IMG/VR virus record: IMGVR_UViG_3300032288_004306
Coordinates: 1-61,050 of that record
DNA from: a virus
Taxonomy: Duplodnaviria > Caudoviricetes
Direction: 5' to 3' (one strand)
DNA length: 61,050 nt
Shown one piece after another: positions 38,323-59,020 of the stretch. A program made the translations under genes and the position numbers. Every line of letters starts with the position of its first letter. Position 1 is the stretch's first letter. Below the pieces are notes generated by a model. That model was given only the letters and a program-made list of their open reading frames with translations, did no database searches and was not told where the DNA came from.

Positions 38323-41300
38323 ATGCCTCTAGCGCGAAATACTCTTAAAATTACTCGTGCTGAGCCAGGAAGCGTCACGTTCAATTCTTCTGGCACATGG
38401 ACAATTCCATTCAAAGTCCGCAAATTTACAGTTACAGGTGTCGGTGGCGTAGGTAATCCTGGTAATCCAGGAAACGCTGGCATTGCTGGTACTGGTGGTC
38501 CAGGTGGTACTGCTGGTGTTGCTGGTAATGCAGGTAATCCTGGAGCAAAAGGTGCGACTGGCAATCCTGGTAATCCTGGCAATGCTGGCAAAGGCGGCGA
38601 AGGCGGGGCTGGTGGCACCGCAGGTTCAGCTGGTAACAAAGGTGCTACAGGTGCTTCTGGTAATCCTGGTAATCCTGGTAACAATGGCGTAGGTGGTGAA
38701 GGTGGTGCTGGTGGTAATGCAGGTTCTGCAGGTAATAAAGGTGCCACTGGCAATCCAGGAAATCCTGGCAATCCAGGAACAAACGGAAATGGTGGTGCAG
38801 GTGGTTTAGCAGGTAATGCAGGAGCTGCTGGTAATCCTGGAAATAGCGGCAATGCAGGCAATCCTGGCAATCCTGGAACTAATGGCACAGGTGGTAGTGG
38901 TGGAGCAGGTGGCGCTGCTGGAGGCGCAGGTAATAAAGGTGCCACTGGCAACCCAGGAAATCCAGGAAACCCAGGAACTAACGGTGTAGGTGGTCCTGGT
39001 GGTAATGCAGGCACTGGTGGCGCAGCAGGAAATAAAGGCGCAACAGGAAATCCTGGCAATCCTGGTAACTCAGGAAATTCTGGCAAAGGCGGTGCTGGTG
39101 GCAAAGGCGGTGCTGGTGGAGGCGCAGGTAATGCAGGAAATCCTGGAGACCCAGGAGGTCCAGGAAACTCTGGTAAGGGTGGTGCAGGCGGCAATGCTGG
39201 CGGAAATGGTGGTTCTGGTGGAAATGGTGGCACTTCTGATGGAAGCCAAAGTGATGGTGGTTTTGGTGGTCCAGGCGGCAATGGCGGTAATCCAGGTTCA
39301 GTTGGTGGTGGAAATATTGGTCCATTAGGCGGTGATGGTGGTCCTGGAGGAAATCCAAGTGGTGGTGCTGGTGGTCCAGGTGCTACTGCTGCGCAGCCAT
39401 TTGAAAACGGCGGTGGCGGTGGTGGCGGTGGCGGCGGAGCTGGTAGCGGTGGAGCTGGATCACCAGGAAATCCTGGTGATGGTGGATTGTTAGGAGCTAA
39501 TGGCGATGATGGTAATCCAGGAAATCCTGCAGGAAACGGTAATGTTGGCGCTGCAGGTAATTCTGGTGCTGATGGTGTTCCAGGAACAGATGGCAATACA
39601 GGTGCTGATGGTACTGGTGCTGGTGGTGGGAATCCAGGAAATGCAGGTGTAGCAGGAAATTTAGGTACGAACGGTAATCCTGGAAACAATGGCAATCCAG
39701 GTGCAAATGGCACAGGAGCCACATCAGGTGGTGCAGGTGCTGGTGGAAATCCTGGAAACGCTGGTGCAGCAGGAAATCCAGGAAATATTGGTAGTCCTGG
39801 TAATGCAGGTTTTGGTGCAACATCTGGCGGCAGTGGTGGTGAAGGTCAGCCTGGAAATGCTGGTACTGCGGGAAATGCTGGAAGCAATGGGAATCCTGGC
39901 GCTAATGGCACAGGAGCCACATCAGGTAATCCTGGATCAGCAGGTTCAGCTGGCACAGATGGTGTAGCAGGGAATGCTGGCAACAAAGGTGCCACTGGCG
40001 CCAATGGTACTGGCGCAACATCAGGTAATGCTGGATCTCCAGGTGTAGCAGGAAATCTTGGCGCTGCAGGTAATGCTGGCAACAAAGGTGCTACTGGTGC
40101 TGATGGTACTGGTGCAAATCCTGGTACTTCTGGTAATCCTGGAACTGCAGGAAATCCTGGTGTAGCAGGTAATTTTGGAAGTGCTGGTACAACTGGCAAC
40201 CCTTCTTCAATTGCGCAATCAACATTCTCAAGTTTCACTACATCCAATTTTGCAGGTGGTGCTGCTGGTCCTGCGGGAACTGGCGGTAATGCTGGCAATA
40301 AAGGCGCAACAGGTAATGCTGGTAACCCAGGAAATCCTGGCAATTCAGGCAAAGGTGGCGAGGGCGGCGCAGCAGGCACTGGCGGAAATGCTGGCAACAA
40401 GGGTGCAACTGGTGCAACAGGAAATTCAGGAAATCCAGGAAATAATGGAGTTGGTGGTGAAGGTGGTGCAGCTGGAACTGCTGGATTAGCAGGTAATAAA
40501 GGTGCAACTGGCGGCAGTGGTAATCCTGGCAACCCTGGCAATAATGGAGTTGGTGGTGCTGGAGGTAACGCAGGTACTGGTGGTGCTGCTGGTAATCCTG
40601 GCAATAAAGGTGGCACTGGCAACCCTGGCAATCCTGGATTCAATGGTAACGGTGGTGCAGCAGGTGCTGCGGGTAATGGTGGCAACGCAGGTAATCCTGG
40701 CAATAAAGGTGGCACAGGCAATTCAGGTAATCCAGGAAACAATGGTGCTGGTGGTCCAGGTGGTAATGCTGGCGGTGCTGGTCTAGCAGGAAACAAAGGT
40801 GCCACTGGTAATCCTGGAAATCCTGGTAATGCAGGAAATTCTGGCAAAGGTGGTCCTGGCGGTAAAGGTGGATCTAAAGGATTTGCAGGAAATGCAGGTG
40901 CCACTGGAAATTCAGGCGCTCCAGGTAATGCTGGTAATGCTGGTAAAGGTGGCACACGCGGAAATGCTGGAACTGCAGGAAATCCTGGAAGCCCAGGAAA
41001 TGCTGGCGTCCCAGGTGGCGGCGGTGGCGGCGGTGGTGGAGGTGGTGCATTTACCATGGAAACTGCTGCAGGAGCCTCTGCAGGATCTCCAGGTAATGCT
41101 GGAGGCGGTGCAACCAACGGTAATGGTGGTGGCGCAGGATCTCCTTTTGCCTTTGGTGGTGATGGTAATGCTGGCTCACCAGGATCTGCAGGTAATCCAG
41201 GAGCAGATGGAACTGGCGCCAATTCAGGAAATCCAGGAAATCCAGGAAATGTTGGTGCCGCAGGTAATCCTGGTGCTGATGGCAATCCTGGTGCTGATGG

Positions 41301-42060
41301 TACAGGTGCAACTTCTGGTGGTGCTGGTGGTTCAGGTGAACCAGGAAATTTTGGTGCTGCTGGTAATCCAGGCACTAACGGCAATCCTGGTCCTGATGGT
41401 ATTGGCGCAACAAACGGTAATGCAGGAAACGCAGGTGGTGAAGGTGGGCTTGGTTTAGGTGGCGATGTTGGCAATCCAGGACCAAATGGCAATGATGGCT
41501 TTGGTGCTGGAAATGGAAATGCTGGCGGAAATGGTGGAGCTGGAAATGCAGGTGGCGGTGGCGATGTAGGTGTTGCTGGTCCTGCAGGTAATGGTGGTTC
41601 TGGTGCAACATCAGGCAATCCTGGAAATGGTGGTGCTGCTGGAAATGATGGTGCAAATGGCACTGCTGGTAATAAAGGCGCAACTGGTGCAAATGGTACT
41701 GGCGCAACATCAGGCAATTCAGGTAGTGCAGGTTCTGCTGGAACAGATGGCGCGAATGGAACCAATGGTAATAAGGGTGCTACAGGTGCAGACGGAACAG
41801 GTGCTGGTTCTGGCAATGCTGGCTCAGAAGGCACACCAGGAAATGCTGGTGCTGCAGGAAATAATGGTACAGCAGGAACAACAGGTGCTAACGGAAATCC
41901 TGGCAACCCAGGAAATCCAGGTGGATCTGGATCATCAGGAACACCAAGCGTTTCAAACATCACTGCACTTAAAACAAGATCAGTGGGTGCACTATCAGCC
42001 ATCACCGTTGGTGGTGGATCTGGATCAGGTCAGATCGTCATATCGTGGTCAGGACAGTAA
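38323..42060 (+). CDS. Giant glycine-rich G-X-Y repeat (collagen/polyglycine II-like) fibre or adhesin
   Basis: About 1,150 aa of G-X-Y (GNPGNPGNAGNKGATG) framed by TFNSSGTWTIP..V....GVGG and GSGQIVISW, the termini of phage Gly-rich domains. Confidence 0.8.
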   Translation: MPLARNTLKITRAEPGSVTFNSSGTWTIPFKVRKFTVTGVGGVGNPGNPGNAGIAGTGGPGGTAGVAGNAGNPGAKGATGNPGNPGNAGKGGEGGAGGTAGSAGNKGATGASGNPGNPGNNGVGGEGGAGGNAGSAGNKGATGNPGNPGNPGTNGNGGAGGLAGNAGAAGNPGNSGNAGNPGNPGTNGTGGSGGAGGAAGGAGNKGATGNPGNPGNPGTNGVGGPGGNAGTGGAAGNKGATGNPGNPGNSGNSGKGGAGGKGGAGGGAGNAGNPGDPGGPGNSGKGGAGGNAGGNGGSGGNGGTSDGSQSDGGFGGPGGNGGNPGSVGGGNIGPLGGDGGPGGNPSGGAGGPGATAAQPFENGGGGGGGGGGAGSGGAGSPGNPGDGGLLGANGDDGNPGNPAGNGNVGAAGNSGADGVPGTDGNTGADGTGAGGGNPGNAGVAGNLGTNGNPGNNGNPGANGTGATSGGAGAGGNPGNAGAAGNPGNIGSPGNAGFGATSGGSGGEGQPGNAGTAGNAGSNGNPGANGTGATSGNPGSAGSAGTDGVAGNAGNKGATGANGTGATSGNAGSPGVAGNLGAAGNAGNKGATGADGTGANPGTSGNPGTAGNPGVAGNFGSAGTTGNPSSIAQSTFSSFTTSNFAGGAAGPAGTGGNAGNKGATGNAGNPGNPGNSGKGGEGGAAGTGGNAGNKGATGATGNSGNPGNNGVGGEGGAAGTAGLAGNKGATGGSGNPGNPGNNGVGGAGGNAGTGGAAGNPGNKGGTGNPGNPGFNGNGGAAGAAGNGGNAGNPGNKGGTGNSGNPGNNGAGGPGGNAGGAGLAGNKGATGNPGNPGNAGNSGKGGPGGKGGSKGFAGNAGATGNSGAPGNAGNAGKGGTRGNAGTAGNPGSPGNAGVPGGGGGGGGGGGAFTMETAAGASAGSPGNAGGGATNGNGGGAGSPFAFGGDGNAGSPGSAGNPGADGTGANSGNPGNPGNVGAAGNPGADGNPGADGTGATSGGAGGSGEPGNFGAAGNPGTNGNPGPDGIGATNGNAGNAGGEGGLGLGGDVGNPGPNGNDGFGAGNGNAGGNGGAGNAGGGGDVGVAGPAGNGGSGATSGNPGNGGAAGNDGANGTAGNKGATGANGTGATSGNSGSAGSAGTDGANGTNGNKGATGADGTGAGSGNAGSEGTPGNAGAAGNNGTAGTTGANGNPGNPGNPGGSGSSGTPSVSNITALKTRSVGALSAITVGGGSGSGQIVISWSGQ

Positions 42061-42098: not shown

Positions 42099-42827
42099 AT
42101 GTTTTTTGATAAGTTAAAGTCTGTCATCAAAACACCAACAATTGAATTTTTATGTTACAAAGAAGATTATGGTGTTCTTCCTGAACCATATCCTGCGCGC
42201 AAATTAATGCCAGATTGGTTCAAGGCACTTCCGCCAAAGATCAATAAAGAAAACAAATTTAAAAATAGCACAATCAAACGTTGTGCACCGTTTCTAGATG
42301 CCATGAATGTGGGTTGGATTCTTCCACTTGCAGCTGACGTTGAGTTTACAACAAATGGTGATGTGAGTGGTGTAAATTACAAGTGGCAGTTTTATCGCAC
42401 CATGATTGAGAATCATGGCAGATCGCAAATTTCTACCGAAGAAGTTCCAAATCCTAATGATCCAAAACCACCAATGAAGTTTTTGAATTATTGGGCAATT
42501 AAAGTTCCAAAAGGTTACTCAGTTCTATTTGTTCCACCATTGAATCGCCCAGACCCAAGGTTCACTTGTATCTCTGGTCTTGTGGATTGTGATGGTTACT
42601 TTGAGTTTATTAATTTCCCATTCTTCTTTCATGAGCCAAATTTTGTCGGAATTATTCCTGCAGGAACACCTCTCGTTCAAGTGATTCCGTTTAAGCGCGA
42701 TGCATTGTTCCGAGACTTCGAAGCAAGAGCAATGACAGAAGAAGAACATAATGAGTTAGAGTTCACTCGTCGTCAAAGAAGCATTCATGAAAGTCATTAT
42801 CGAGATTATGTATGGAGTAGAAAATAA
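42099..42827 (+). CDS. DUF6065-like protein (paralogue 1)
   Basis: P.PA....PDWFK, TIKRC.PFLDAM..G, KF.N.W.I..P.GYS.LF, G.VD.D, GTPLVQVIPFKR. Confidence 0.7.
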   Translation: MFFDKLKSVIKTPTIEFLCYKEDYGVLPEPYPARKLMPDWFKALPPKINKENKFKNSTIKRCAPFLDAMNVGWILPLAADVEFTTNGDVSGVNYKWQFYRTMIENHGRSQISTEEVPNPNDPKPPMKFLNYWAIKVPKGYSVLFVPPLNRPDPRFTCISGLVDCDGYFEFINFPFFFHEPNFVGIIPAGTPLVQVIPFKRDALFRDFEARAMTEEEHNELEFTRRQRSIHESHYRDYVWSRK

Positions 42828-43417
42828 TGTCAGTATATCAATTTGCGCCAAGTCCAGATAAATCCACAAATGAATCATTACATGCATGGTGGAACGATGG
42901 CTTTACTTCTCGTGAAATAAAGGATATAATCAATGTTGGTGATGATTATGTACAAAGTGATGGAACAATTGGTTCAGGTGAAACTAACGAAGATATTCGC
43001 AAATCTAAAGTTGCTTGGATCAATAACAACACAAGAACAAATTGGTTGTATGATCGTATGGCGTTTATTACAAGAAATCTAAACGGACAATTTTTCGATT
43101 TCGATTTGTATGGGTTTGTTGAAGATTTCCAATACACAGTTTATGGTGAGGGAAATGATCATTATACTTGGCATATGGATAAGGGAAGAAACTCAACCTC
43201 GCCAAGAAAACTGTCATTAGTTTTGCAATTATCCGACCCTTCTGAGTATGATGGTGGCGATCTAGAAATATTCACTGGAGCAACGCCCACAGTCTTGGAA
43301 AAGAAAAAGGGAATTATTCATGCCTTTCCAAGTTTTGTGATGCATCGCGTAACTCCAGTGACTCGTGGCGTGAGAAAGACTTTAGTTGTTTGGGTTTCTG
43401 GACCGAAGTTTAGATAA
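42827..43417 (+). CDS. PKHD/prolyl-4-hydroxylase-like 2OG-Fe(II) oxygenase
   Basis: FQYTVY, Y.WHMD, RKLS..LQLS.P.EY.GG, FPS...HRVTPVT.G.RKTLV.W. Confidence 0.9.
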   Translation: MSVYQFAPSPDKSTNESLHAWWNDGFTSREIKDIINVGDDYVQSDGTIGSGETNEDIRKSKVAWINNNTRTNWLYDRMAFITRNLNGQFFDFDLYGFVEDFQYTVYGEGNDHYTWHMDKGRNSTSPRKLSLVLQLSDPSEYDGGDLEIFTGATPTVLEKKKGIIHAFPSFVMHRVTPVTRGVRKTLVVWVSGPKFR

Positions 43418-43418
43418 A

Positions 43419-43452: not shown

Positions 43453-44292
43453 ATGTCAACAACTAGAGATTATACAAAAACCTGGATTCCTGGACCATCT
43501 CGCGTCAATCAAACGTTTAATGCTCCAGGAAGTATCACGATTCCATATGGAAGATATCAGGCAACTGTAACAGGTAAGGGTGCTCCTGGAAACTCCCCAC
43601 AAGCAACTGCATGGGCAACAAACTACAACGTAGTGTATCCAGTTGGTAATCGCCCGATTGCAAATCAACCTGCAACTGGGTGGACAACAAACTATAACGT
43701 TGCATACCCAGTCAACTATCCATTCGCGGCAAGTCACGAAGCATATCAACCTCCAAATTATTGGGCTGTCGGATATCATAAAGGATACACTTATTGGTCT
43801 AGACCTGCATATGGTCAAACTGAGAATTTCAATCCGCAAGGTCCAAGTATATTCGGTTCCAGTCAATGTGGATTTTCTCCGCAACATCAAAGTGGACCAT
43901 CGCATCTTTCAAGCCACACTGTTCAACATCGAGAATACACTATCAATCAGTGCCAAACGTATCCTGGATACCCATACACAGTTATCAACTACAACGTTGC
44001 ATATAACACTGTATACCCAATCGCAACTCAGCCCGCAACTGCTTGGGTGACAAATTATAATACAAATTATAATGTTGTATATCCAATTGCAAATCAACCT
44101 GTGACTGCATATGTTTTAGGTAATGTTGGTGCTGCAGCAAGTGCATTGGGTGTTACTGCTCCTGGTGGTCCTGTATCTCAAGCAGCAAGTCCAATATCCC
44201 CTACTGCAGTCTCTTATTATTCATATCCAGATAACGCAACATATCCTGTTACTGTCCCATCAGGTGGTCAAATCAATATTACTATAACATAA
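43453..44292 (+). CDS. Tyr/Asn/Pro-rich putative fibre-tip or adhesin protein
   Basis: Same framework as the 38323 protein (TFNAPGSITIP...TVTGKG / VTVPSGGQINI); internal repeats NYNVVYPIANQPATAW; own late promoter. Confidence 0.55.
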   Translation: MSTTRDYTKTWIPGPSRVNQTFNAPGSITIPYGRYQATVTGKGAPGNSPQATAWATNYNVVYPVGNRPIANQPATGWTTNYNVAYPVNYPFAASHEAYQPPNYWAVGYHKGYTYWSRPAYGQTENFNPQGPSIFGSSQCGFSPQHQSGPSHLSSHTVQHREYTINQCQTYPGYPYTVINYNVAYNTVYPIATQPATAWVTNYNTNYNVVYPIANQPVTAYVLGNVGAAASALGVTAPGGPVSQAASPISPTAVSYYSYPDNATYPVTVPSGGQINITIT

Positions 44293-44329: not shown

Positions 44330-44941
44330 GTGAGAATGATGTATCCTATACCAAAATTTAGTAAACAATTAAACCATTTTTGTCATGTTACAGATGTCTT
44401 CTCAAAAGAAGAAGTGAAGAAAATACTAGATCTAGAAGATTTAACTAAATTCTTAAAAGGTAACGTTGGAGATGGTGATCGTGGCCAGTTAAATATTACG
44501 GCTAGAGACAGTGATATCATGTGGCTGCAGCCAACTGATGGTCAAAACGGTGAAGCGTTGTGGCTTTTTGACAAATTTGCGCATCTAACTGGGCAAGTAA
44601 ACCAAGATCATTTTCTTTTTGACATCGATCATCTCCAAGCATTTCAATACACCGTCTATAGAGAAAGTCAACATTATACATGGCATGTTGACATTTCAAA
44701 CATATGGATGAAATACGAAAGAAAAATTAGCGCATCTATTATTCTCACAGACCCTGATGAATATGAGGGTGGAGAATTTGAAGCAATTGTTGGCGGTAAT
44801 GTTGAAAATCCAACAGTCATAAAACCAAATAAAGGGGATGTTATCTTTTTTGCCTCTTGGATTCCTCACAGAGTAAGACCTGTCACGAGTGGCGTAAGAA
44901 AATCATTAGTTGCTTGGGTTATGGGTAAGAGGACTTGGTGA
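44330..44941 (+). CDS. PKHD/prolyl-4-hydroxylase-like 2OG-Fe(II) oxygenase
   Basis: FQYTVY, YTWHVD, RKIS, EYEGGEF, HRVRPVTSGVRKSLVAW. Confidence 0.9.
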   Translation: MRMMYPIPKFSKQLNHFCHVTDVFSKEEVKKILDLEDLTKFLKGNVGDGDRGQLNITARDSDIMWLQPTDGQNGEALWLFDKFAHLTGQVNQDHFLFDIDHLQAFQYTVYRESQHYTWHVDISNIWMKYERKISASIILTDPDEYEGGEFEAIVGGNVENPTVIKPNKGDVIFFASWIPHRVRPVTSGVRKSLVAWVMGKRTW

Positions 44942-45681
44942 TGTTTGAACTATTTACATCATGGAAACAAAAAAAGGAAATCATGACCTTTTATTGTCAC
45001 CCAGAATTAGAAGATGTCATCCCAAAACCAGAACCAGCATTATCTAATCTTCCAAAGTGGTTTAAAGATCTAGATCCTTCATTTGAGGGTTTTGATAAAT
45101 TTGGTCATGAAAATATGACCGCTAAAAAATGTCTACCACTTATTGACGGTATGTCGTTAGGCTACGTCATCAAATTAGCAGGAGATGTTCGAATTCGAAG
45201 CAATAAAGATTGCACTCAAATTGATCATCTAGAACAACCACAACTTAAACTAATTGAATACCACACTGAAAAGCAAGTTGGTGGTAATCATGCATTAAGA
45301 AAAAAACAAGGACCAATCATTAAGTTTGTGAATCATTGGATAATTAAAACTGCGCCAGGATGGTCAACTTTATTTGAACCATTACCAAACGTGTTTGATA
45401 GTCCATTTACTTGTTTTTCTGGTTTAGTTGACACTGATCAATATCCAAAACTTGTAAATTTTCCAGCAGTTTGGAATTTACCAGATGCAAATTTTTTATT
45501 AAAAGCAGGAACTCCATTAGTTAGAGTAATCCCGATTGAAAGAAGTTCAATTACAAAAATGAAGAAAAACACAGTTATTCGTAAAATGAGTGAAAAAGAA
45601 TTTTTGACAATTTCTAAAATAGAAAAGATTCAACAGTTAAGAAATAATTATTATACTCATGATTTGAGGGTGAAAAAATGA
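44941..45681 (+). CDS. DUF6065-like protein (paralogue 2)
   Basis: P.PA...LPKWFK, TAKKCLP..D.M..GY, KFVNHW.IKT.PGWSTLF, GLVDTD, GTPLV.VIP; start may be 44935-44941. Confidence 0.7.
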   Translation: MFELFTSWKQKKEIMTFYCHPELEDVIPKPEPALSNLPKWFKDLDPSFEGFDKFGHENMTAKKCLPLIDGMSLGYVIKLAGDVRIRSNKDCTQIDHLEQPQLKLIEYHTEKQVGGNHALRKKQGPIIKFVNHWIIKTAPGWSTLFEPLPNVFDSPFTCFSGLVDTDQYPKLVNFPAVWNLPDANFLLKAGTPLVRVIPIERSSITKMKKNTVIRKMSEKEFLTISKIEKIQQLRNNYYTHDLRVKK

Positions 45682-46454
45682 TTTTTGATTTTATGAAAAA
45701 AAGTGATATTGATTTTATCGATGCAGATAATAGTACTGCACATATTCCAGAACTTGCAATAAAGCGTGCAAGAGATGTTGAACCATTTTTTAAACAATCG
45801 CAAAAAGATAAATTTGGGGAGTATAAATTTGCTGCTTGTCCAGGTATGTTAGATTTTGCTAGAATTGGTTATATAATTCCAGCATGGGGTCCTTTAAAGA
45901 TAAAGGGAAATTCTGCAGGCACAGTAACTTTAAATACTCCACCTCTAGAGATTAGACAAAACAATCCAAATATATCGTTTATGCCTGCGTTGAGGTTTGA
46001 TGAGGACGTCATCGATGGATTATTCACAACACAAGATAATGTTAAATTATCTGTTTACAATTTTCCATCTCCATGGAGAATTCGGTGTAGAAAGGGTTTA
46101 TCAGTAATTGTAATGCCCGCATTTTACCATTTCAAACATGTAAACTCTATACAACTTATTCCAGGCATTGTTGATTATTCTGCTGGATTTCAAACAGTTA
46201 ATTTTATTGCTGCAGTAACTAAAGAAACAGAGATTCATATTGAACCTGGTGAACCATTAATTCACATAATTCCAATTCCAACTGATGCAATTATTGCTAC
46301 TTATGGTAAAGAACACGATTATAAAACCAAAAGTATCGATAACACAACTAATCCATTTAAGAGTTATAAACAATGGTATTCAAAGTATGTCAAATTAAAT
46401 AAAAAATTTAAACTTGTTAATAGAAATAAAGAAAAGTATGAGACCTTCAATTGA
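45678..46454 (+). CDS. DUF6065-like protein (paralogue 3, divergent)
   Basis: CPGM.D....GYIIPAW, PW.I....G.S, PGIVDY, GEPL.HIIP. Confidence 0.6.
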   Translation: MIFDFMKKSDIDFIDADNSTAHIPELAIKRARDVEPFFKQSQKDKFGEYKFAACPGMLDFARIGYIIPAWGPLKIKGNSAGTVTLNTPPLEIRQNNPNISFMPALRFDEDVIDGLFTTQDNVKLSVYNFPSPWRIRCRKGLSVIVMPAFYHFKHVNSIQLIPGIVDYSAGFQTVNFIAAVTKETEIHIEPGEPLIHIIPIPTDAIIATYGKEHDYKTKSIDNTTNPFKSYKQWYSKYVKLNKKFKLVNRNKEKYETFN

Positions 46455-47413
46455 TGAGAAAAATATTCGTTAATATTGCATCTTATAGAGATTGTTATCT
46501 TCCAGCAACGATTAAAAGTTTAATCAATAATGAATCTGGTAGAAATCAAATTACATATGGAATATTCGATCAATCACATTTAGAAAGTAGTTTATTTGCA
46601 ACAGCAAAAGATCTAATAAATTTACCAAATGTTAGATATAAAAGAATAGATCCAGAATATTCTGACGGAGTCGTTTGGGCTCGAGCCATTAATGCAATGC
46701 AAATTAATGAAGAAGAATTCATGTATCAAGTGGATTCGCATATGCTTTTCGATAAAGATTGGGACAATTATTTAATTTGGGATTATGAGCAAGCAAAGAA
46801 AATTGCAAACACAGAAAAAATAATATTATCGACTGGAACAAAAAATTTTGAAGCAGTTGATAATAAAATAACAAAGCATACATTGTCTGATGACATAACT
46901 GTTAAATTTGGATACTTTCAATTTAGAAAAAATCTTCAACTTAGAGTGCATGGTCCATGGATCCCTGCCACCTCTGTGGTGCAACCTTCAATCCATGCAA
47001 TTGCTGGAAATTTTTTCACCACTTCAAAATGGGTAAAAGATGTCGGATATAACACAAATATGTACTTCGACGCTGAAGAGCAAGTGCTTGCACTTTCCTC
47101 TATTATTGCTGGGTACAAGATATATGCTCAGAGAAAGATAAAGTGTTACCATTTGATTGGTTCTAATAAACACATCAGTCGGCAAGAAGTTGAACCAGTC
47201 ATCCATCCAAGCATAATTCAGAGAAATAAAAATCGAGAAGAGAGAGAACTAATCGACTACATCTACTCTTTACCAGAAGAAAAACTAGAAGAATATAGAA
47301 AACTCACTGGAGTTGATTATATAAATAGAAAATTAGAGGATAGAGCTATCTCGCGATCAATACCGCACGATTCAGATTTAGTCAACGATTGGGAAATTCC
47401 AAATAGAGAGTAA
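46454..47413 (+). CDS. GT60 / Skp1-hydroxyproline GlcNAc-transferase (Gnt1)-like glycosyltransferase
   Basis: IFVNIASYRD, G..WAR, YQVDSHM.F.KDWD (DSH metal motif), AGNFF, F..EE. Confidence 0.8.
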   Translation: MRKIFVNIASYRDCYLPATIKSLINNESGRNQITYGIFDQSHLESSLFATAKDLINLPNVRYKRIDPEYSDGVVWARAINAMQINEEEFMYQVDSHMLFDKDWDNYLIWDYEQAKKIANTEKIILSTGTKNFEAVDNKITKHTLSDDITVKFGYFQFRKNLQLRVHGPWIPATSVVQPSIHAIAGNFFTTSKWVKDVGYNTNMYFDAEEQVLALSSIIAGYKIYAQRKIKCYHLIGSNKHISRQEVEPVIHPSIIQRNKNREERELIDYIYSLPEEKLEEYRKLTGVDYINRKLEDRAISRSIPHDSDLVNDWEIPNRE

Positions 47414-47414
47414 A

Positions 47415-48143
47415 ATGACGCTTCAAAAGTCTAACGTAGTCACAAACATAGAACTGGTGGTAAGAGATTCTTCTCAGATCGAAGAAAGGCACGTTCTTGC
47501 GGCGGCAGAAGTTGGTGTGGGATCCGCAAATCAAAGTCCAGCAGAAGTTTTAAATGTTCGAGAAGTGTGTAATTTTAAAAAAACTTCTGAAGGATACACG
47601 GTAGATGGTAAAGAGTATGTTTATCTATCTCCACATGAAGGAATAGTTGAAAATTCTGATACAAATTTATTCGTATCAATAAGAAAAAATCATGAAATTA
47701 AAAATAACACTTCTCCTCAAACTCAATTAACATCAAACGCTCTATATCTACTAACTCAAGGATCAATGGAAATCTCTTATGAGAGTGGAGAAAGGGAAAC
47801 ACTCTCAGCTTTTGTCGGGGAAAATTGGAGTTCAGAGTACCCTAATTATAGATACTCAGTAAATTGTATAGTTGAGTTACATAAGAATTCTTCTTTGTTC
47901 GTAGTCGACTTATTAAACCCTGTATCGAATTATGATATTGAGCATATTCAATTTAACGGTGTGATTGAGAAATCTTTAGATTCGAATGTGATTGTTATTG
48001 CTAAATGCATTAATACGAGTCCAACTAATAATCTTGTTTATGTGAATGACGAGCTTTGCAGAAGTTACTTGATTTGCAACGGAAATATCTCGTTAAATTC
48101 ATCTGGCAATGCAATCAGCGTTCTTATAAAGAATAAACAATAA
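47415..48143 (+). CDS. Hypothetical protein
   Basis: 242-aa ORF in operon orientation; no recognised motif. Confidence 0.55.
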   Translation: MTLQKSNVVTNIELVVRDSSQIEERHVLAAAEVGVGSANQSPAEVLNVREVCNFKKTSEGYTVDGKEYVYLSPHEGIVENSDTNLFVSIRKNHEIKNNTSPQTQLTSNALYLLTQGSMEISYESGERETLSAFVGENWSSEYPNYRYSVNCIVELHKNSSLFVVDLLNPVSNYDIEHIQFNGVIEKSLDSNVIVIAKCINTSPTNNLVYVNDELCRSYLICNGNISLNSSGNAISVLIKNKQ

Positions 48144-51500: not shown

Positions 51501-54500
51501 TTAATAGTGCCAACTACGATGATCCTGACTACACTGTAACTGGTCCAGACGATGGTTACATTCTATATGAAGCCGCCACTGGTTCTGGTGCAAATGGCGA
51601 CTTGATTGTTGGTACTGGCACAAACGGTACAAATAATAAGATCACTTTTGTTGCTGGTGGATTCGGTCGCGAAGATGCTCAATTGATCATCAGCCCACAA
51701 GCACTTAAGAGAGCAGACATTCAAGGTCGTTCGTTGACGTCAAATGTCGCAACGATTCATACTGTTGGTGCTCATACGTTTATTGCAAATGATCAAGTAA
51801 CAATCAGTGGCGTAAGTGCTCCATTCAATGGAACGTTTACAGTAACTGGTGCTCCAACATCGAATACGTTTACATATAACCTTACAAGCACGAATGCATC
51901 ATTTGCTTCAGTTGATCCTGTTGGTAAGGCAGTGCAGTTTGTTGTGTTTAACAGAGGCACTGTTGAGATTCCATCTCAATTGCTTGCTGGTGAAAATGCA
52001 CTCTCAACGCTAATTGATGCAGGTATTGACCTTGCAAATAACTTTGCTGTTGCTGCAGCAGCAGTGGTGGACTATAATGGTCCTGGCGAAACTGTCATGT
52101 TCAACAAGAGCAATGGCTCTCTTGCATACTCTGAGTTCAATGCTCGAAACTCTGAAGCCAACTCTGAACATGGTTGGATTTCTCTTGGTATTAACTCACC
52201 AACCTATAATGATCCATCATTCCCAATCACGAAAGGTGATGATGGTTATCTTCTATACGAAGCACCATTTGGAACAAATAATAGTGGTGACTTGATTATC
52301 GGCACTGGTGTACACGGTCAAAATAATCGTATCATCTTTGCTGCTCAAGGTTTCGACGAAGCCAATGCTCAGATGTCTATCACACCAGACTCGTCAGTGC
52401 GAATTAGAATTAACACTGATTCGACAAGTGCAAACACTGGCGCTCTTACAGTTGATGGTGGTATCGGTATCCTTGGTTCAATGTATATCCAAGGTAATCA
52501 AACAATTCAAGGTGACTTGATTGTTAACGGTACGCAGATCATTCAATCTGTACAAAGCCTCGTTGCTGAAGGTCCAATTTCTCTCGTTGGTAATGATACA
52601 GTTGGAGATACATGGGACTCTGGCGTTGTTGCAGCATATGCTCTATCCAAGACACCAGAAACAGCAAGTATCAATAATAAAGCACTTACAAATAACATTG
52701 TAACACTCACAACAACGTTGAATCATACCTTCGAAGTTGAAGATCTTGTTACAGTTGCAAACGTTGATGCAACATTCGACGGAACATATCGAATCACCAA
52801 CGTAACTGCAAATACGTTCTCATACTACAAACTTGCATCAAACGTTGCATCACAAGCTGATACTGGTGATGCAACAGTCAATAAGAGAATGTACTATGAA
52901 GGTGTTGTCAAGAATGTCAATACCAACTACTGGAACTTCTTCTCAGGTCTACAAACTCGCCCAGAGTTCAATGTTGACTGGAACGATGCAAATCTAGCAT
53001 TCGACGGTATCGTTGCTGGTGCTGCTGACTTCAAGGGTTCATTGAAGTTTGGTACAACAACAAATCAAGTGACATTGAACTATACTGATACAAACAATCG
53101 TACATTGACTGTTCCAGCATTGGGTGGCAATAGAACGTTCGCGTTTATCAATGAAGTTCAAACATTCACTGGTAATCAAACGTTCAGCGATAACGTAACT
53201 GCTCGCAAGATTATTGTCACTGGCGATAATGTTGATGGCACTGGTATGTTCTTACCAACTGCTGCAACTCTCGGCTTCTCAGTCGATGGTGTTGAGCGTG
53301 TAAGATTTGCCACTGGTGAAGCAGTAATCAACGAGAACTCGCAAGATTATAACTTCCGCGTCGAAACAAATAATGATGCTCATGCATTGTTTGTTGATGG
53401 TGGTACTGACAACGTTGGTGTTGGTTTAGACGGACCAACTTCGAAGTTCCACGTTGTTGGTAATGCAAACATTACTCTTGGTATCGTAACTGGTGCTGGT
53501 GTAAATGCTGCAACTGTCAACGCAACAACGTTGAACGCCGCAACACTTATCACGAATGCTGGTATCAACGTAACGGCTCAAGCTGCTGATGCTTATGGTC
53601 AAGCAAACTCTGCTCGCGATCAAGCCAATACAGCATACGGTCAAGCCAACGACGCATATAGTCAAGCAAACACGGCTCGTAACCAAGCCAACAGTGCTTA
53701 CGGTGCAGCAAATAATCGTGTGTTGAAGGCTGGCGATGTTATGACTGGCACTCTCAACGTCAACTTTGCTGGCGTTGGATTGAATGTTAACACTGATGCA
53801 GTATTCGGAAACACGATTGCAGTTGGCTCTGGTGCGCAAATTAGCCTACCAAATCTAGTTGCTCAGTTTACGTCAAATCAAAATGGCTATAGCCAAATTA
53901 ACTTTACAAATCAAAATGCTGGAACAAATGCTTCTGGTGATGTGGTTGTAACTGCTGATGATGGTAGTGATACCGCATACTACATTGATATGGGTCTCAA
54001 CAGCAGCGGATTTAACGATCCAACATATGCGATTATGAAGGCTCACGATGGTTATGTGTATATCAACGGCGGCAACCTCGTCATGGGTACTTCTACCTCT
54101 GGCGATGACGTGGTTCTCTTTGCTGGTGGCACTGGTGCAGCCAACGAAGGATTGCGTGTATTCTCTAACGGTGATATAAATGTAAGCAAGACATTGTGGG
54201 TTGGTGGAAATAATATTTCTGCTAAACTCAATGCTGCATACGGTCAAGCCAATAGTGCTTATGATGCTGCAAATAATGCCAAGGTTACAGTTTATGCCAA
54301 TAGCGATTCAGGCGTAACAACTCAAGCAATCAACTTTGTAAATACATCTTCAGTTCTTGTGGCTGTTGCAAACAGTGGCGGTAATTCTAATGTCACTCTA
54401 ACGCTTGCTGGAACACCATACGATCAAGCCAATGCTGCTAGATTGCAAGCGAATACTGCTCGTGGAACTGCTAATGATGCATATGGTCAAGCAAATGCTG

Positions 54501-55930
54501 CTTATGGTCAATCAAACACGGCACGTGATACCGCAAATGCTGCTTACGCTCAAGCCAATTCAGACTATCAACCAGCAGTAACTGAACTTGCTGTTACGAA
54601 CAATGGCACAACAGCATATCGATTTGATCAATACGGTGCTACAACAGACGATCCAACGATCTATGTTCGTGCTGGCGAAACAATTGCATTTAATCTAAAC
54701 AATGCTGGTCACCCATTTGCAATTCGTGTTTCGAATGGCGGTTCAAACTATGATACAGGGTTGACGCACGTTGCAACAGATGGCACAGTAAGCACTGGCT
54801 CGAGTGCGCAAGGGAAAGTCGCTGGTAAACTTTACTGGAAGGTTCCTTTTGAACTTGGTGGAAACACTTATGTTTATCAATGCACTTCACACGCTGGAAT
54901 GGTTGGTAACATTGTCATTGAAACTGACAGTACTGTCATTTATGCCCAAGCAAATACTGCTCGCGACCAAGCCAATAGTGCTCGTGGACAGGCTAATGCT
55001 GCGTTTGCTCGCGCTAACCTTGTTTATACTCAAGCAAATAATGCATACGCCCAAGCAAACTTGGTTTATGGTGTTGCTAACGATGCATACGGACAAGCAA
55101 ATGCAGCTTACACTGCAGCAAATAATGCCAAGGTGACTGTATTTGCGAATAGCGGCGCAGCAAATGCAACAACACAAACAATCAATTTTGTGAACACATC
55201 GTCAATCCTTGTGACTGTTGCAAATACTGCAGGCAATGCTAATATTACATTGTCAATCATTGGTACTCCATATGATCAGGCAAATGCTGCTCGTGGTCAA
55301 GCAAATACAGCATATGGACAAGCCAACGACGCATATGGTCAAGCAAACACTGCCAGAACTCAAGCAAACACTGCTCGCGACCAAGCAAATACTGCTTATG
55401 ACCAAGCAAACACTGCCAGAACTCAAGCAAACACTGCTCGCGATCAAGCCAATACTGCTCGTGACACAGCCAATGCTGCATATGGTGCTGCGAACACTGC
55501 GGGTACAAATGCACTAGCTGCTTATGGTCAAGCAAACGCTGCATATGCTCGCGCTAATACTATTATCGATGGTACTGTTGCGATTAAGACGTTGTCGATG
55601 ACACAAAACCTCATCGCTGATACTGGAGCAACTGGCACAGAAATTGTCAACTTGTCTCTAGGCGACGTCTTTAGATTTGTCTTGGTTGGTGGAACGACAT
55701 TTACCTTCAATAATGCGCCAAGTTCTGGAACAGCGAAGTCTGTGTCTCTATTGGTGCAGCAGGATGCTACTGGTGGTCGCACAGTTTCTTGGGGTAATAC
55801 AATCTACTGGGCTGGTGGTTCTGCGCCTCCAGCAACGACAACAGCAAATGCTCGTGACTTGTATACCTTCATCACCTTTGATGGTGGCAGCACGTTCTGG
55901 GGCACATTGTCTATCAAGGACGCTAGATAA
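48512..55930 (+). CDS. Giant multidomain fibre: collagen (GPQ)n, heptad coiled-coil repeats, duplicated beta domains, cupredoxin-like domain, C-terminal adaptor-type domain
   Basis: GPQ triplet blocks at about 48540-48980 and 49220-49555; A(Y/R)xQANx heptads; two or three copies of a N.G..A..EF..GWIS.GINS..Y.DP...DGY domain; HPF...CTSHAGM. Confidence 0.82.
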
Positions 55931-55951
55931 TAGAGTCTAGCGTCTCTTTTT
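55919..55951 (+). terminator. Probable intrinsic terminator overlapping the fibre stop codon
   Basis: GACGCTAGA-N8-TCTAGCGTC followed by TCTTTTT. Confidence 0.6.
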
Positions 55952-55960
55952 GAGTTTGTT

Positions 55961-56962
55961 ATGAAATTACATGTATTGGTCAATCCAAGAAACCCTACAG
56001 GTTTAATGAACCGCATTGACCCCTTTGCGGTTCATGCCTACAAATACATCAAACATCTTTTACCATATTATGACATAGTTCATTATGGTGTAGAAGGTGC
56101 ACAAGTAGATTGTGAACATGTAAATGTTCCAGATATTAATGGGATTGACACTATTGCATTTAATAGAGCTGCTGGCGAAGAAATTGCAAAAAGAAAATCG
56201 CCCAATGATTTGATTATCAGTTTTTTTGGTAAAGATAATCAGCTTGCTTGCGATATGAACCCTGATTGTAAGGTTGTTGAGCCTTCAATTGGTTATCGTG
56301 CCAATGGAGTTTTTGCTCCATATCGTGTATTCACTTCATATGCAAATATGCATTATTTCTATGGTGAGCGCGGAATGCTCATGAACCCTTCGTGGTTTGA
56401 TGCTGTGATACCAAACCCATTTACTATTTCTGAATTTGAATACTCTGATATAAAAGATGATTATTATTTGTATCTTGGTCGCGTTGTAGAAGAAAAGGGA
56501 ATTCATCTTGCCATTCAAGCAACAGAAAAACTCGGAAAGAAATTGATTATTGCTGGACCAGCGCAAAATTTAAATCATCTTGGATACAAATCTATTCCAA
56601 GTCATGTACAATTAGTTGGTTATGTGAATGCTGAACAAAGAAATGAGTTGCTTAAAAATGCAAAAGCATTACTTGGTTTAACATACTATCTTGAACCATT
56701 TGGGAATATGGTTATTGAAGCCAATCTTTGCGGAACACCTGTAATTACAACTGACTGGGGCGCATTCCCAGAAATTGTAGTTGAAGGTGTGACTGGATTT
56801 AGAGTCAGAGACTTCCAATCACTATTAACTGCAATGAATAAAGTAGATTTGCTAGATTCATTTGAATGTCATGAACATGGCTTACAGTTCTCTGATGAGA
56901 ATGTGCACGAATTGCATCATCGTTATTTGCAAAAAGTGATAAAGAATTCTTTCTATGACTAG
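55961..56962 (+). CDS. GT4-family (GT-B) glycosyltransferase
   Basis: YLGRV..EKG...AI, EPFGNMVIEA..CGTPVITTDWGAFPE. Confidence 0.9.
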   Translation: MKLHVLVNPRNPTGLMNRIDPFAVHAYKYIKHLLPYYDIVHYGVEGAQVDCEHVNVPDINGIDTIAFNRAAGEEIAKRKSPNDLIISFFGKDNQLACDMNPDCKVVEPSIGYRANGVFAPYRVFTSYANMHYFYGERGMLMNPSWFDAVIPNPFTISEFEYSDIKDDYYLYLGRVVEEKGIHLAIQATEKLGKKLIIAGPAQNLNHLGYKSIPSHVQLVGYVNAEQRNELLKNAKALLGLTYYLEPFGNMVIEANLCGTPVITTDWGAFPEIVVEGVTGFRVRDFQSLLTAMNKVDLLDSFECHEHGLQFSDENVHELHHRYLQKVIKNSFYD

Positions 56963-57707
56963 CAAACTTTTTATTATACCTTCTACCATTCAAGCCAAAG
57001 AAGGAAAATTCACATACTCAAATACAAGAAGTGTATTTTCAACTGAAGAACGATTACGACAAACAATTTTTACAATCAATTCTATTCAAAACGCATACCC
57101 CAACTCTCATGTGGTTTTATTAGATTCTTCTGATGATTATCAAAATTTAAAATTAGAATTTAAACATATACCAAATTTAGATTTTATTTCAGTTAGAGAA
57201 TTATCCCCAGAGAATGCAGATGTAATTAACACACACCCGAATAAAAGTTTATGTGAATGTTTAATGATGAACACTTATTATAAACATTTTAAAAAACAAA
57301 TAAAACAATATGATTATGTGATCAAGGCTTGCGGAAGATATTTTTATTTTAACTTCTATGATCTTTTCACAGAAGAAAATAAAGAAAAAATATTTTTCAA
57401 GCACCCATTGAATTTTGAATGGAATGATAGTTGGAACTATCATTTTGTTGATTTACGAGAAATTCAAAACAATAATCGACTATATCAATATTGTACCGTA
57501 TTATTTGCTTTTGGTAGCATTCATTTAGAAAAGTTCATAGATATAAATGAATCAGTTATTCATCTATTAAAACAACCTAGTATGAGACATTATGATATTG
57601 AAACGCTATCATATTATTTGACAAGACCATACGCAAAAGATATTGTAGAAGTTGATTGGAAAGTTTGCGGTTGGGACGGAACATCTGGTCGATTTATGTA
57701 TTATTAA
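56955..57707 (+). CDS. Hypothetical protein, possibly glycosyltransferase-related
   Basis: R..QT..TI.SI, YDYVIK..GRY, D.E motifs; lies between glycosyltransferase genes. Confidence 0.45.
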   Translation: MTSKLFIIPSTIQAKEGKFTYSNTRSVFSTEERLRQTIFTINSIQNAYPNSHVVLLDSSDDYQNLKLEFKHIPNLDFISVRELSPENADVINTHPNKSLCECLMMNTYYKHFKKQIKQYDYVIKACGRYFYFNFYDLFTEENKEKIFFKHPLNFEWNDSWNYHFVDLREIQNNNRLYQYCTVLFAFGSIHLEKFIDINESVIHLLKQPSMRHYDIETLSYYLTRPYAKDIVEVDWKVCGWDGTSGRFMYY

Positions 57708-57713
57708 GAACAT

Positions 57714-58271
57714 ATGAAAACTAAACTAATTATCACAGACGATTTTTATTCGAATCCAGATGCAGTTCGATCTTATGCACTATCACAATCGTTTGAGGTT
57801 CGAGGAAACTATCCAGGACTTCGAACTAAACCATATCTTCCAGACGACGTTAAAGATGCAATTCAATACATCGTCTATAACGCTGGCGGCAAAGTAACTG
57901 ATTGGATGGAGAATTGTGGTTATACTGGCGCATTTCAAATTTGCACTGCGCAAGATAGAACTTGGATTCATGCTGACAGTTATAACACTTGGGCTGCTGT
58001 CTGTTATCTTACGCCAGATGCTCCAATTTCATCTGGAACTGCTTTATATCGTCACAAAGCCAGCGGCGACTATGAAAGAAAAGATAACTCGCAACCCCAT
58101 CTAGATGGTAATGATTATACCAAATGGGAAAAAACAGATTATGTTGCAAACAAATATAATCGAATTGTGGTGTATCGTGGTAATTTATATCATGCATCAC
58201 TAGATTATTTCGGCGATAATTATCAAAACGGTCGATTATTTCAAACTTTCTTTTTTAATACTGAATACTAA
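57714..58271 (+). CDS. DUF6445-like 2OG-Fe(II) oxygenase-fold protein
   Basis: DDFY.NPD.VR, NYPG.RT, WIHAD, A.VCYLTP.....GT..Y, NR.V.Y....YH, RL.Q.FF. Confidence 0.78.
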   Translation: MKTKLIITDDFYSNPDAVRSYALSQSFEVRGNYPGLRTKPYLPDDVKDAIQYIVYNAGGKVTDWMENCGYTGAFQICTAQDRTWIHADSYNTWAAVCYLTPDAPISSGTALYRHKASGDYERKDNSQPHLDGNDYTKWEKTDYVANKYNRIVVYRGNLYHASLDYFGDNYQNGRLFQTFFFNTEY

Positions 58272-59020
58272 TGAAAATTCTTCATGTTGTTTTTTCTTGC
58301 AATCGTTTAAAATATCTAACTCAATCTATCGATTCTTGGTGCAATTTAAATTATGGCGGGCATCAAGTAACAAGATTAATTGTTGATGATTATCCTAGAA
58401 CTCGAAATGATGCTATATTTGAGTTGCTCGGAAAAACGCACAACACTCTATTATGGAGAAACACTGAGAATTTAGGGTTGTCTGTTACCTGGTCTAATTT
58501 CTTTAATTGGCTTAAAACTCAAGATTATGATTATGTCTTACATCAAGAAGACGATGTTATTTTAAAAGGTGTAACTCGTATTGATGATATGATTGAGTGT
58601 TTAGAATCTAACCCTAAAATTGCTTCTGTTGTGTTACAAAGGCAACCATGGTACTTCACTGAAACAAAAAGTAGAATAGAACTCGACGATGTACCTTTTA
58701 AAAACTATTGGTACTCGAAAAATACTAAAACGTTCCCTATTATATTCTCTTTATATCGTAAAAATATTGTAGAGTATCCATTTCAAGAATATTGGAACTT
58801 CAATTTAAATGAGGGGATGATAATGGTCTATCTAGATCATTATCATCAAATGTATTCCGCAACTCTAAAAGGATATAATGGAGAAAATTTGATAGAGCAT
58901 ATTGGAGAGGAATCAACAGGAAAGAGAATTCTTCCTGGAGAGCCAAGATATGAATATTTCGCTCATATGGATCCTGATAAAGTATACACTTCTCGAGAAG
59001 GGAAATTGATCGAGGACTAA
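58271..59020 (+). CDS. GT2-family (GT-A) glycosyltransferase
   Basis: SCNR..YL...I.S, IVDD, NLGL, YDYVLHQEDD, HIG. Confidence 0.8.
   Translation: MKILHVVFSCNRLKYLTQSIDSWCNLNYGGHQVTRLIVDDYPRTRNDAIFELLGKTHNTLLWRNTENLGLSVTWSNFFNWLKTQDYDYVLHQEDDVILKGVTRIDDMIECLESNPKIASVVLQRQPWYFTETKSRIELDDVPFKNYWYSKNTKTFPIIFSLYRKNIVEYPFQEYWNFNLNEGMIMVYLDHYHQMYSATLKGYNGENLIEHIGEESTGKRILPGEPRYEYFAHMDPDKVYTSREGKLIED

Follow-up and report, generated by a model that had tools for sequence, protein, structure and literature searches.

Two oxygenase-containing gene modules, each tied to its own repeat protein, in the tail fiber region of an uncultured T4-like phage: candidate systems of fiber self-modification

The extensin-type glycoproteins of plants and algae consist of short tandem repeats, rich in Pro and Tyr and poor in charge, which prolyl 4-hydroxylases (P4Hs) hydroxylate before O-glycosylation takes place on hydroxyproline. 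In Toxoplasma, PHYa hydroxylates Pro154 of SKP1, and GNT1, the first glycosyltransferase (GT), acts on the hydroxylated product (PMC11570480). A Chlorella-virus P4H acts on proline-rich viral peptide repeats, as cited (Eriksson 1999) in PMC9301287, an article in which the role of P4Hs in phages is termed cryptic. In cyanomyophages and pelagimyophages, a hypervariable "host recognition cluster" sits between the baseplate and neck genes, and in it fiber genes are mixed with GTs and auxiliary metabolic genes (PMC7029224). We analyzed a viral contig of 61,050 bases (IMG/VR record IMGVR_UViG_3300032288_004306, positions 1 to 61,050, the whole of which is called the window below; estimated completeness 35%). 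It belongs to an uncultured T4-like myovirus whose tail fiber (host-recognition) region carries two modules, A and B, in which genes for a P4H-type 2-oxoglutarate (2OG)-Fe(II) oxygenase and for DUF6065 proteins, joined in module B by a GT60-like transferase, are each tied to the gene of one particular repeat protein. The reading that we favor, and to which we give roughly an even chance, is self-modification: the enzymes would hydroxylate the adjacent repeat proteins of the phage itself and, in module B, also glycosylate them.

The genes of the two modules are as follows, with Pfam cut-offs in brackets.

38323..42060, + strand: collagen-like Gly/Asn/Pro protein of 1245 amino acids (aa), PF01391; repeat protein of module A
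42099..42827, + strand: DUF6065a, of a family with a predicted dUTPase fold; phrog_7084 at 1.1e-65, PF19541 at 16.5 bits (26.6); module A
42827..43417, + strand: P4Ha, 2OG-Fe(II) oxygenase of the prolyl-hydroxylase type; PF13640 at 55.7 bits (27); module A
43453..44292, + strand: Pro/Asn/Tyr/Thr-repeat protein ("PYN" family) of 279 aa; repeat protein of module B
44330..44941, + strand: P4Hb, 2OG-Fe(II) oxygenase of the prolyl-hydroxylase type; PF13640 at 60.9 bits (27); module B
44941..45681, + strand: DUF6065b; PF19541 at 30.4 bits (26.6); module B
45678..46454, + strand: DUF6065c; phrog_7084 at 4.1e-23, PF19541 at 19.1 bits, below the cut-off (26.6); module B
46454..47413, + strand: GT60-like polypeptide glycosyltransferase; PF11397 at 84.6 bits (21); module B

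On this reading, the modules would be a variant of known protein hydroxylation and glycosylation systems. As in the Skp1 pathway of Dictyostelium and Toxoplasma, a cytoplasmic P4H-type oxygenase is combined with a PF11397/GT60-type transferase, with further GTs nearby. Unlike in that pathway, the phage has no Skp1, modification would fall on long, hypervariable repeat proteins that offer many potential sites and not just one, and module B has two proteins of predicted dUTPase fold as obligatory companions. The oxygenases resemble the P4Hs of the Chlorella virus PBCV-1 (PDB 5c5t) and Bacillus anthracis (3itq, 5hv0) in being small soluble PF13640 enzymes, but they score nearer to PKHD-type hydroxylases (3e-13) and are genetically coupled to DUF6065 and a specific repeat protein. 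The likeness to extensins is one of analogy alone: the phage repeats are also charge-poor, Pro/Tyr-rich, short and tandem, but they are Asn-rich, have no Ser-Pro4 blocks, are made in the bacterial cytoplasm and would receive a GT60-type sugar, not arabinose. Full-text literature searching, which did not extend to most subscription journals, found no description of either module, and the literature on PiuC/PKHD substrates, GT60 in phages, DUF6065 and phage virion O-glycosylation held nothing relevant to these genes.

Relatives of module B were collected from IMG/VR by an alignment-based scan that returned 101 relatives of the GT60-like protein, of which 80 loci were kept; a scan of the viral contigs with the single GT60-like protein had returned no relative. 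The content of each locus was determined by searching its stop-to-stop open reading frames (ORFs) with the proteins of the window (phmmer, E<1e-5). DUF6065c was present in 78 of the 80 loci, DUF6065b in 74 and P4Hb in 72, the misses being contig-end cuts. The order P4Hb, DUF6065b, DUF6065c, GT60 was constant with the exception of loci L035-L040, where the repeat protein is preceded by GT60 and a second P4H paralogue, the set nevertheless staying together. This extra paralogue (L038:9441-10004 and its equivalents in L035-L040) is situated upstream of GT60, and in L038 a Ser replaces the second iron-binding His, so that it may be inactive.

An ORF of the 43453 family (proteins are named here by the start of their genes in the window) lay immediately 5' of P4Hb in 66 of the 69 loci that had P4Hb, DUF6065b and at least 400 nucleotides (nt) upstream, with a gap of 15-81 nt. 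In the other three loci (L041, L043 and L052) an ORF of 216-230 aa intervenes before P4Hb. These intervening ORFs (L041:1860-2552, L043:7156-7848, L052:7270-7920) come after a Tyr-rich G-Y-T/G-S-K collagen-like protein, and that of L041 matched Sulfotransfer_2 (PF03567, 27.8 bits), making it one more candidate modifying enzyme. The downstream neighbor of module B varied and was of at least six kinds, including LtfC with the giant fiber, gp13, an inverted GT2/DUF6445 pair, an inverted module A and a collagen-like gene.

Module A was studied in the same manner. DUF6065a had 1237 relatives at E<=1e-10, and a viral scan with a DUF6065a alignment gave 95 relatives, from which 80 loci were kept. A G-X-Y protein (at least 8 triplets) adjoins DUF6065a in 74 of these loci, on the same strand in 72; in the six loci lacking such a neighbor, the contig ends within 730 nt on that side or, for L134, is truncated on the opposite side. 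The top triplets of these collagen-like neighbors were GNP, GNA, GAA and GTA, with Pro far commoner at Y than at X. A P4H was adjacent to DUF6065a in 76 of the 80 loci, in agreement with the expectation of the preliminary description of this DNA that a GNP protein with Y-position Pro would co-occur with a P4H-like gene. No trace of P4Ha was found by tblastn in L144, L147, L148 and L159, and in L147 and L159 a PF13759 oxygenase (L147:8684-9298) is coupled to DUF6065a in its place. In loci with P4Ha, the fraction of Y positions occupied by Pro was 0.03-0.28, with a median of 0.16 (51 non-redundant collagen-like neighbors of at least 30 triplets), compared with 0.01, 0.01 and 0.08 in the three neighbors without P4Ha. 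This joint loss fits an action of P4Ha on Y-position Pro. In many relatives a PF13759 (2OG-FeII_Oxy_5) homologue lies directly 3' of P4Ha, giving the order DUF6065a, P4Ha, Oxy5.

GT60, DUF6065b/c and the 43453 family were absent within 8 kilobases in all 80 module-A loci, indicating that GT60 travels with the Pro/Asn/Tyr-repeat protein and not with the collagen-like proteins. The single pathway around collagen-like fibers that was originally proposed, with the GT60-like enzyme as part of it, is thereby replaced by two modules, each tied to one repeat protein. The linkage between enzymes and repeat proteins is far tighter than shared ancestry alone explains, and it survives rearranged gene orders and different flanks.

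The 347 G-X-Y triplets of the collagen-like protein 38323 form 21 runs of four or more (two of 88 triplets and 19 shorter ones) and cover 84% of its length, and the protein matched the Collagen family (PF01391) with 133.6 bits. As had been noted from its letters, it is GNP-rich with Pro at Y: GNP occurs 57 times, and Pro is found 73 times at Y versus 9 times at X. Asn occupies 140 of the 347 X positions. A fold of the polyglycine-II type is, we presume, an alternative to the collagen triple helix for this protein. The description of 43453 as Pro/Tyr-rich was also borne out, as its 279 residues include 31 Pro, 29 Tyr, 31 Thr and 25 Asn. Its N- and C-termini are conserved in the family (hidden Markov model matches of 5.7e-26 and 1.8e-27, respectively) and the middle consists of hypervariable short tandem repeats. 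In 70 non-redundant members the repeat region was composed of 18% Asn, 13% Ala, 11% Pro, 10.6% Thr, 10% Tyr and 8.5% Gly, with charged residues almost absent; Asn is the most frequent residue in both repeat families. The ESM Atlas held no usable match for 43453. The N-terminal modules of the two families aligned with each other (hhalign probability 98.4%, E 5.8e-15, 39 columns), and on this alignment the two repeat-protein families have a homologous N-terminal module. Modules A and B are paralogous units of a repeat protein and its candidate modifying enzymes.

Downstream of module B lies a second protein with collagen-like triplets, together with a small coupled gene.

48180..48515, + strand: LtfC-like small protein coupled to the giant fiber; phrog_1084 at 1.4e-23, phrog_3304 (annotated "L-shaped tail fiber protein assembly") at 6.7e-19
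48512..55930, + strand: giant fiber of 2472 aa with a GPQ collagen-like N-terminus

The preliminary description had counted two giant G-X-Y proteins, which is apt for 38323 and not for 48512. The latter is indeed GPQ-rich (44 occurrences), with Pro at X 54 times versus 3 times at Y, and it matched PF01391 with 106.9 bits; its 86 triplets (runs of 11, 15, 23 and 37) all fall in residues 11-348 and make up 10% of its length. The remainder is composed of coiled Ala/Asn/Gln-rich repeats, globular parts, a cupredoxin-like segment and a C-terminal tip domain, so only the N-terminus is collagen-like. GPQ-type fibers, with Pro at X, are present in many loci yet dispensable, and module B was found in L060, L062 and L064 with full flanks and no G-X-Y protein. 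48512 has no specific oxygenase linkage, and its proposed role as an enzyme target was not sustained. As substrate, 43453 is the likeliest choice for the P4Hb/GT60 set, as is 38323 for P4Ha, and the GPQ fiber is not implicated. The cupredoxin-like segment (54581-54928, residues 2024-2139) scored 21.2 bits for PF00127, exactly the cut-off, had weak PDB matches to plastocyanins, amicyanins and copper nitrite reductases, and by eye has a His...Cys-x2-His-x2-Met ligand pattern. The phrog_9017 C-terminal tip domain is common to 35199-37544, 37556-37960 and 48512-55930 and also terminates many fibers of the related loci.

The identification of P4Ha and P4Hb as PKHD/P4H-like oxygenases was upheld by their PF13640 scores and their solved relatives. 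In an alignment of 27 sequences, H119, D121 and R190 were invariant and H180 nearly so, that is, the H-x-D...H iron triad and the Arg, the basic residue expected to bind 2OG, are conserved. A profile of the oxygenases matched 20 PDB sequences at E<=0.1, 13 of which are named PKHD-type or prolyl hydroxylases: four PKHD-type hydroxylases (best 2.9e-13) and nine prolyl 4-/3-hydroxylases or procollagen-proline dioxygenases. The Chlorella-virus P4H (5c5t) was matched at 7.7e-9, and the profile also reached a Chlamydomonas P4H, the B. anthracis P4Hs (3itq and 5hv0; 3e-4) and P3H1, the matches to these enzymes spanning 8e-9 to 5e-3. The remaining seven matches were two unnamed chains, a generic 2OG oxygenase, EctD and three phytanoyl-CoA dioxygenases. 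None of the 20 is named as a nucleic-acid oxygenase, and no AlkB or TET/JBP-type chain was among them.

The GT60-like assignment of 46454 was likewise confirmed, and its start is the ATG at 46454, as previously given. The PF11397 match was recovered again in a six-frame search of the record, and 180 homologues were found at E<=0.001, with PF11397 in 119 of the 120 listed. An alignment of 31 sequences shows no variation at D94-S95-H96, located at the end of strand 89-94 of the predicted model (predicted local distance difference test (pLDDT) 94.1); by analogy with GT27/GT60 enzymes, this is probably the metal-binding catalytic motif. All PDB matches of the model listed by Foldseek were polypeptide GalNAc-transferases (best E 8.2e-12; template-modelling value about 0.55 over the catalytic domain). 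The predicted model has a GT-A fold and is nearest to GT27 polypeptide transferases. Solved Gnt1 was absent from the Foldseek matches listed, and the likeness of 46454 to Gnt1 rests on the Pfam family. A single further gene lies between the GT60-like and LtfC-like genes.

47415..48143, + strand: protein of 242 aa; no family match, and no homologue in the 80 GT60 loci

The three DUF6065 proteins align mutually and all match phrog_7084 (1e-65 to 4e-23), supporting the earlier view of them as paralogues, with PF19541 above its cut-off in DUF6065b only. For DUF6065b the ORF list gave a TTG start at 44935; the ATG at 44941 overlaps the P4Hb stop. The DUF6065b model (pLDDT 88.9) was subjected to an exhaustive structural comparison, in which the top 22 of 48,161 chains all belonged to the dUTPase / dCTP-deaminase superfamily, with Z from 10.1 (root-mean-square deviation 3.2, 120 residues) to 5.8 and the next chain at 4.8. 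In Foldseek the best match was also a dUTPase, with weak agreement (E 6.9e-4). Based on the model, DUF6065 is predicted to have a jelly-roll dUTPase-like fold, with a helical C-terminus. A DUF6065 profile searched against PDB sequences at E<=10 found no dUTPase and a chance match to interleukin-2 (E 0.86). The DUF6065 alignment has no conserved His pair; its conserved G-x-V-D-x-D-x-Y stretch resembles what we take to be dUTPase motif III. In the ESM Atlas, DUF6065b matched only unnamed clusters, mostly viral.

Homologues of DUF6065 were found by tblastn in 49 haloarchaeal tailed-virus records at 43-50% identity, and a halovirus homologue scored 35.7 bits for PF19541. In haloarchaeal myoviruses the gene closes the tail-fiber module, near a Gly/Asn-rich tail protein. 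The loci used for context were L163 (HSTV-2; 8893-9762 and 11118-12158), L167 (Serpecor1; 5902-6732) and L165 (5998-6717). In HSTV-2 the DUF6065 gene converges on the tail module, whose gene 35 encodes a Gly/Asn-rich protein. The tail-fiber side is the same in Serpecor1, and there the nucleotide-side neighbor is a ribonucleotide reductase on the other strand. A tail fiber with glycine-rich motifs has been described in the tail region of the Serpecor1/HF1 group (PMC7230728). The phage locus is thus like the glycine-rich-motif fibers and adhesins of T4-type and HF1-group viruses in that a DUF6065 gene abuts such a region in HSTV-2 and Serpecor1, and differs from them in the much greater length of its low-complexity part (347 triplets) and in the oxygenases and transferase encoded beside it. 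In a genome-contig scan for DUF6065a, 2 of 41 pattern matches were true relatives, and one of these two cellular loci is a siphovirus-type prophage in an Anaerolineales metagenome-assembled genome, with DUF6065 between Dit and a Gp37-like tail protein. P4H was absent from the halovirus and cellular DUF6065 loci inspected. As the tail-side neighbor is constant in the haloviruses and the prophage, we suggest that DUF6065 may be a fiber-associated accessory protein of dUTPase ancestry, its role being the least certain part of our interpretation. A plain phage dUTPase was considered and rejected as the main reading, given three paralogues that are all coupled to fiber-linked genes and the conserved neighbor in haloviruses and prophage being the tail side.

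Overlapping starts and stops join the enzyme genes within each module: DUF6065a/P4Ha by TAATG, P4Hb/DUF6065b by TGATG, DUF6065b/c by ATGA and DUF6065c/GT60 by TGATG. Elsewhere, DUF6445/GT2 are joined by TAATG, GT4/56955 by 8 nt and LtfC/fiber 48512 by ATGA. The sequence TATAAATA, presumably the T4 late-promoter consensus, was found 5 times in the window versus 3.6 expected, which is not significant. One copy is 25 nt upstream of the LtfC-like gene 48180, and the motif was kept before LtfC in 12 of 24 and 5 of 12 relatives and before gp13 in 15 of 28 and 9 of 19. Before enzyme genes it was seen in 0 or 1 relative per gene family, and a dedicated late promoter for module B, considered on account of the exact motif before 43453, was dropped when that motif proved to be conserved in only 2 of 55 relatives. 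The enzyme genes therefore appear to be transcribed by read-through from upstream structural genes. A scan for sigma-70 promoters and terminators added only a strong terminator-like hairpin (55918-55945; 11 pairs, then a T run) that overlaps the 48512 stop codon and separates the giant fiber from the GT4/56955/DUF6445/GT2 set.

The self-modification reading is based on the enzyme families, their conserved catalytic residues, the gene overlap, and the conserved linkage and co-loss; the substrates, the chemistry and incorporation into the virion we infer from these. During late infection the oxygenases, working in the cytoplasm of the host, would hydroxylate prolines of the neighboring repeat proteins. 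In module A the targets would be the Y-position Pro in the -Asn-Pro-Gly- triplets of 38323. In module B the GT60-like enzyme would add an N-acetylhexosamine to hydroxyproline, or to Thr/Ser, of 43453, and the product would be an extensin- or mucin-like decorated fiber protein. The DUF6065 proteins, probably trimeric, would serve as fiber-associated accessories, acting as adaptor, chaperone or nucleotide(-sugar) binder.

Several observations weigh against this proposal. GT60-family enzymes can also use Thr as acceptor, so that hydroxyproline need not be the acceptor, and none of the six longer, fused GT60-like forms found by our search is fused to a P4H; they join PF10250 and carbamoyltransferase domains. 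Among solved structures the oxygenases come closest to PKHD-type hydroxylases, for which the depositors named no substrate, P4H-type oxygenases occur in 354 cultured phage records, mostly of cyanophages and often distant from fibers, and the window has two further 2OG oxygenases far from the fiber region (PF13759; 938-1591 and 3979-4575). Regarding DUF6065, a distant relative in cyanophage S-RIM4 (22%, tblastn) lies near a ribonucleotide reductase, and the HSTV-2 gene follows thymidylate synthase and DNA polymerase. Many loci are near-duplicates of each other, so that the pattern of P4Ha loss with Pro loss amounts to two or three lineages (L144; L147/L148; L159). The scarcity of the late-promoter motif before 43453 counts on the same side, as does the interpretation of the GTs of this genome region as modifiers of the O-chain of host lipopolysaccharide (PMC7029224).

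The alternative that survives best, although we consider it unlikely, is that the enzymes act on the repeat proteins by other chemistry, such as hydroxylation of Asn, Tyr or some other residue, direct glycosylation of Thr/Ser by the GT60-like enzyme, or a main role of the P4H-like and DUF6065 proteins as assembly factors of Gly/Asn-rich fibers. The abundance of Asn in both repeat families (18% of the 43453-family repeats, as well as its X positions in 38323) and of Thr in the 43453 family is consistent with this, as are the PF13759 oxygenase that takes the place of P4Ha in L147 and L159 beside DUF6065a and a Pro-poor Gly/Asn/Ser protein, and the occurrence of DUF6065 with Gly/Asn-rich tail proteins in haloviruses that have no P4H. 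However, the PDB-matched PF13640 enzymes with known protein substrates are prolyl hydroxylases, Y-position Pro tracks the presence of P4Ha, and a purely structural role is countered by the conserved catalytic residues.

A second alternative, which strikes us as distinctly improbable, is that these are host-directed auxiliary genes that modify envelope glycans or proteins of the host, for example to block superinfection, and merely reside in a hypervariable island. This would agree with the mixed gene content of host recognition clusters and the O-chain interpretation of their GTs, with the cryptic role ascribed to phage P4Hs, and with a set of four genes beside gp13.

55961..56962, + strand: GT4 glycosyltransferase; PF00534 at 78.7 bits (26.4), phrog_3408 at 5.3e-66
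56955..57707, + strand: protein of 250 aa, conserved between GT4 and DUF6445; no significant family match
57714..58271, + strand: DUF6445 protein; PF20043 at 59.2 bits (24)
58271..59020, + strand: GT2-like protein (weak); PF00535 at 21.6 bits, below the cut-off (23.3), phrog_3047 "galactosyl transferase" weak at 4.2e-5

The GT4 and DUF6445-like families named earlier were both recovered above their cut-offs, and the GT2 assignment of 58271 was not. These four genes form a conserved set of their own that accompanies either module: homologues of 56955 were found in 17 of the 80 GT60 loci and also in the module-A-only loci L086-L091 and L105, and DUF6445 and the GT2-like gene invariably formed a pair adjoining gp13, whichever way the pair was oriented. 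In DUF6445 visual inspection alone shows an H-x-D followed by a later His, and a search of PDB sequences gave zero matches. Cultured cyanophages have DUF6445 next to GT11 and GT25 or fucosyltransferase genes, which also speaks for a host-directed function. GT4, GT2 and DUF6445 may either extend a protein-linked glycan or act on host glycans. What host-directed genes leave unexplained is that a paralogous repeat protein stays the direct neighbor of P4H/DUF6065 through rearrangements, that the presence and absence of GT60 follow those of the 43453 family, and that Y-position Pro is lost together with P4Ha.

A base-J-like modification of DNA or nucleotides, in which bases are hydroxylated, sugars added and the nucleotide pool handled by the dUTPase-fold proteins, is very unlikely: T4-like phages commonly hypermodify their DNA, and the DUF6065 fold and the nucleotide-side genes of HSTV-2 favor it, but the oxygenase matches include no AlkB or TET/JBP-type chain, the transferase belongs to PF11397 with polypeptide transferases as its nearest solved folds, the DUF6065 profile finds no dUTPase by sequence, the nucleotide-side neighbor differs in Serpecor1 with the tail-fiber side unchanged, the Anaerolineales prophage has DUF6065 among tail genes, and the phage genes are embedded in late structural gene runs with overlapping starts.

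All the genes named in the preliminary description were present where it had placed them, and they lie within a T4-type virion module on the + strand that extends from gp5 (15477) through gp15 (60697).

15477, + strand: start of gp5
18031, + strand: start of gp25
18425, + strand: start of gp6
20496, + strand: start of a gp7-like protein
25060, + strand: start of gp8
27083 and 31774, + strand: two VrlC/DUF4815-type proteins
35199 onward, + strand: fiber proteins
37556..37960, + strand: small fiber-tip-like protein of 134 aa; phrog_9017 tail fiber protein at 1.7e-15
37974..38303, + strand: protein of 109 aa, a conserved companion of the collagen-like gene; no match in Pfam, PHROG and NCBIfam searches
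59047, + strand: start of gp13, at the far end of the window
59810, + strand: start of gp14, at the far end of the window
60697, + strand: start of gp15, at the far end of the window

Homologues of 37556 precede the 37974/collagen gene in related loci, and many of the 80 module-A loci have a homologue of 37974 next to DUF6065a or the G-X-Y protein. The closest cultured relative of the gp14 neck protein is from a cyanomyophage (40.9% identity). Zero matches were obtained in 50,697 phage records by megablast of 42000-48600 and 55900-61050 and by tblastn of the GT60-like protein, leaving no cultured phage with these genes at hand. As the modules sit between the baseplate and neck genes, they fall within the host recognition cluster of the literature. 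Two further features of the window were noted. A region with elevated G+C (0.45) and negative AT skew contains an ORF of 908 aa (6215-8941, - strand) that encodes a VanY-type peptidase domain (PF02557, 36.8 bits) and matched nothing in PHROG. The VrlC/DUF4815-type baseplate protein at 27083-31753 has a weak PT-HINT match in residues 1315-1426 (PF07591, 24.6 bits; cut-off 27.7), which could mean a Hint-type insertion.

Our broadest proposal, which we put forward tentatively and with more doubt than conviction, is that uncultured T4-like phages, a widespread group represented by well over 100 viral contigs, build hydroxyproline-linked glycoprotein fibers by means of P4Hs, GT60-like enzymes and DUF6065 as a new class of dUTPase-derived fiber adaptor, which together would convert hypervariable, charge-free repeat proteins into virion structures like extensins or mucins. 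The candidate substrates are encoded beside each module, which makes the hypothesis directly testable. If true, it would mark the first case of a hydroxyproline O-glycosylation system in a prokaryotic virus. DUF6065 would gain its first functional context, and some of the many "2OG-Fe(II) oxygenase" genes in phages of sea and fresh water, termed cryptic in their role (PMC9301287), would be given a function for the first time. The receptor-binding fibers would depend on O2, 2-oxoglutarate and iron, so that competence for adsorption would be coupled to the physiology of the infected cell, and host recognition by abundant aquatic phages would depend on a chemistry known from protists, plants, animals and giant viruses.

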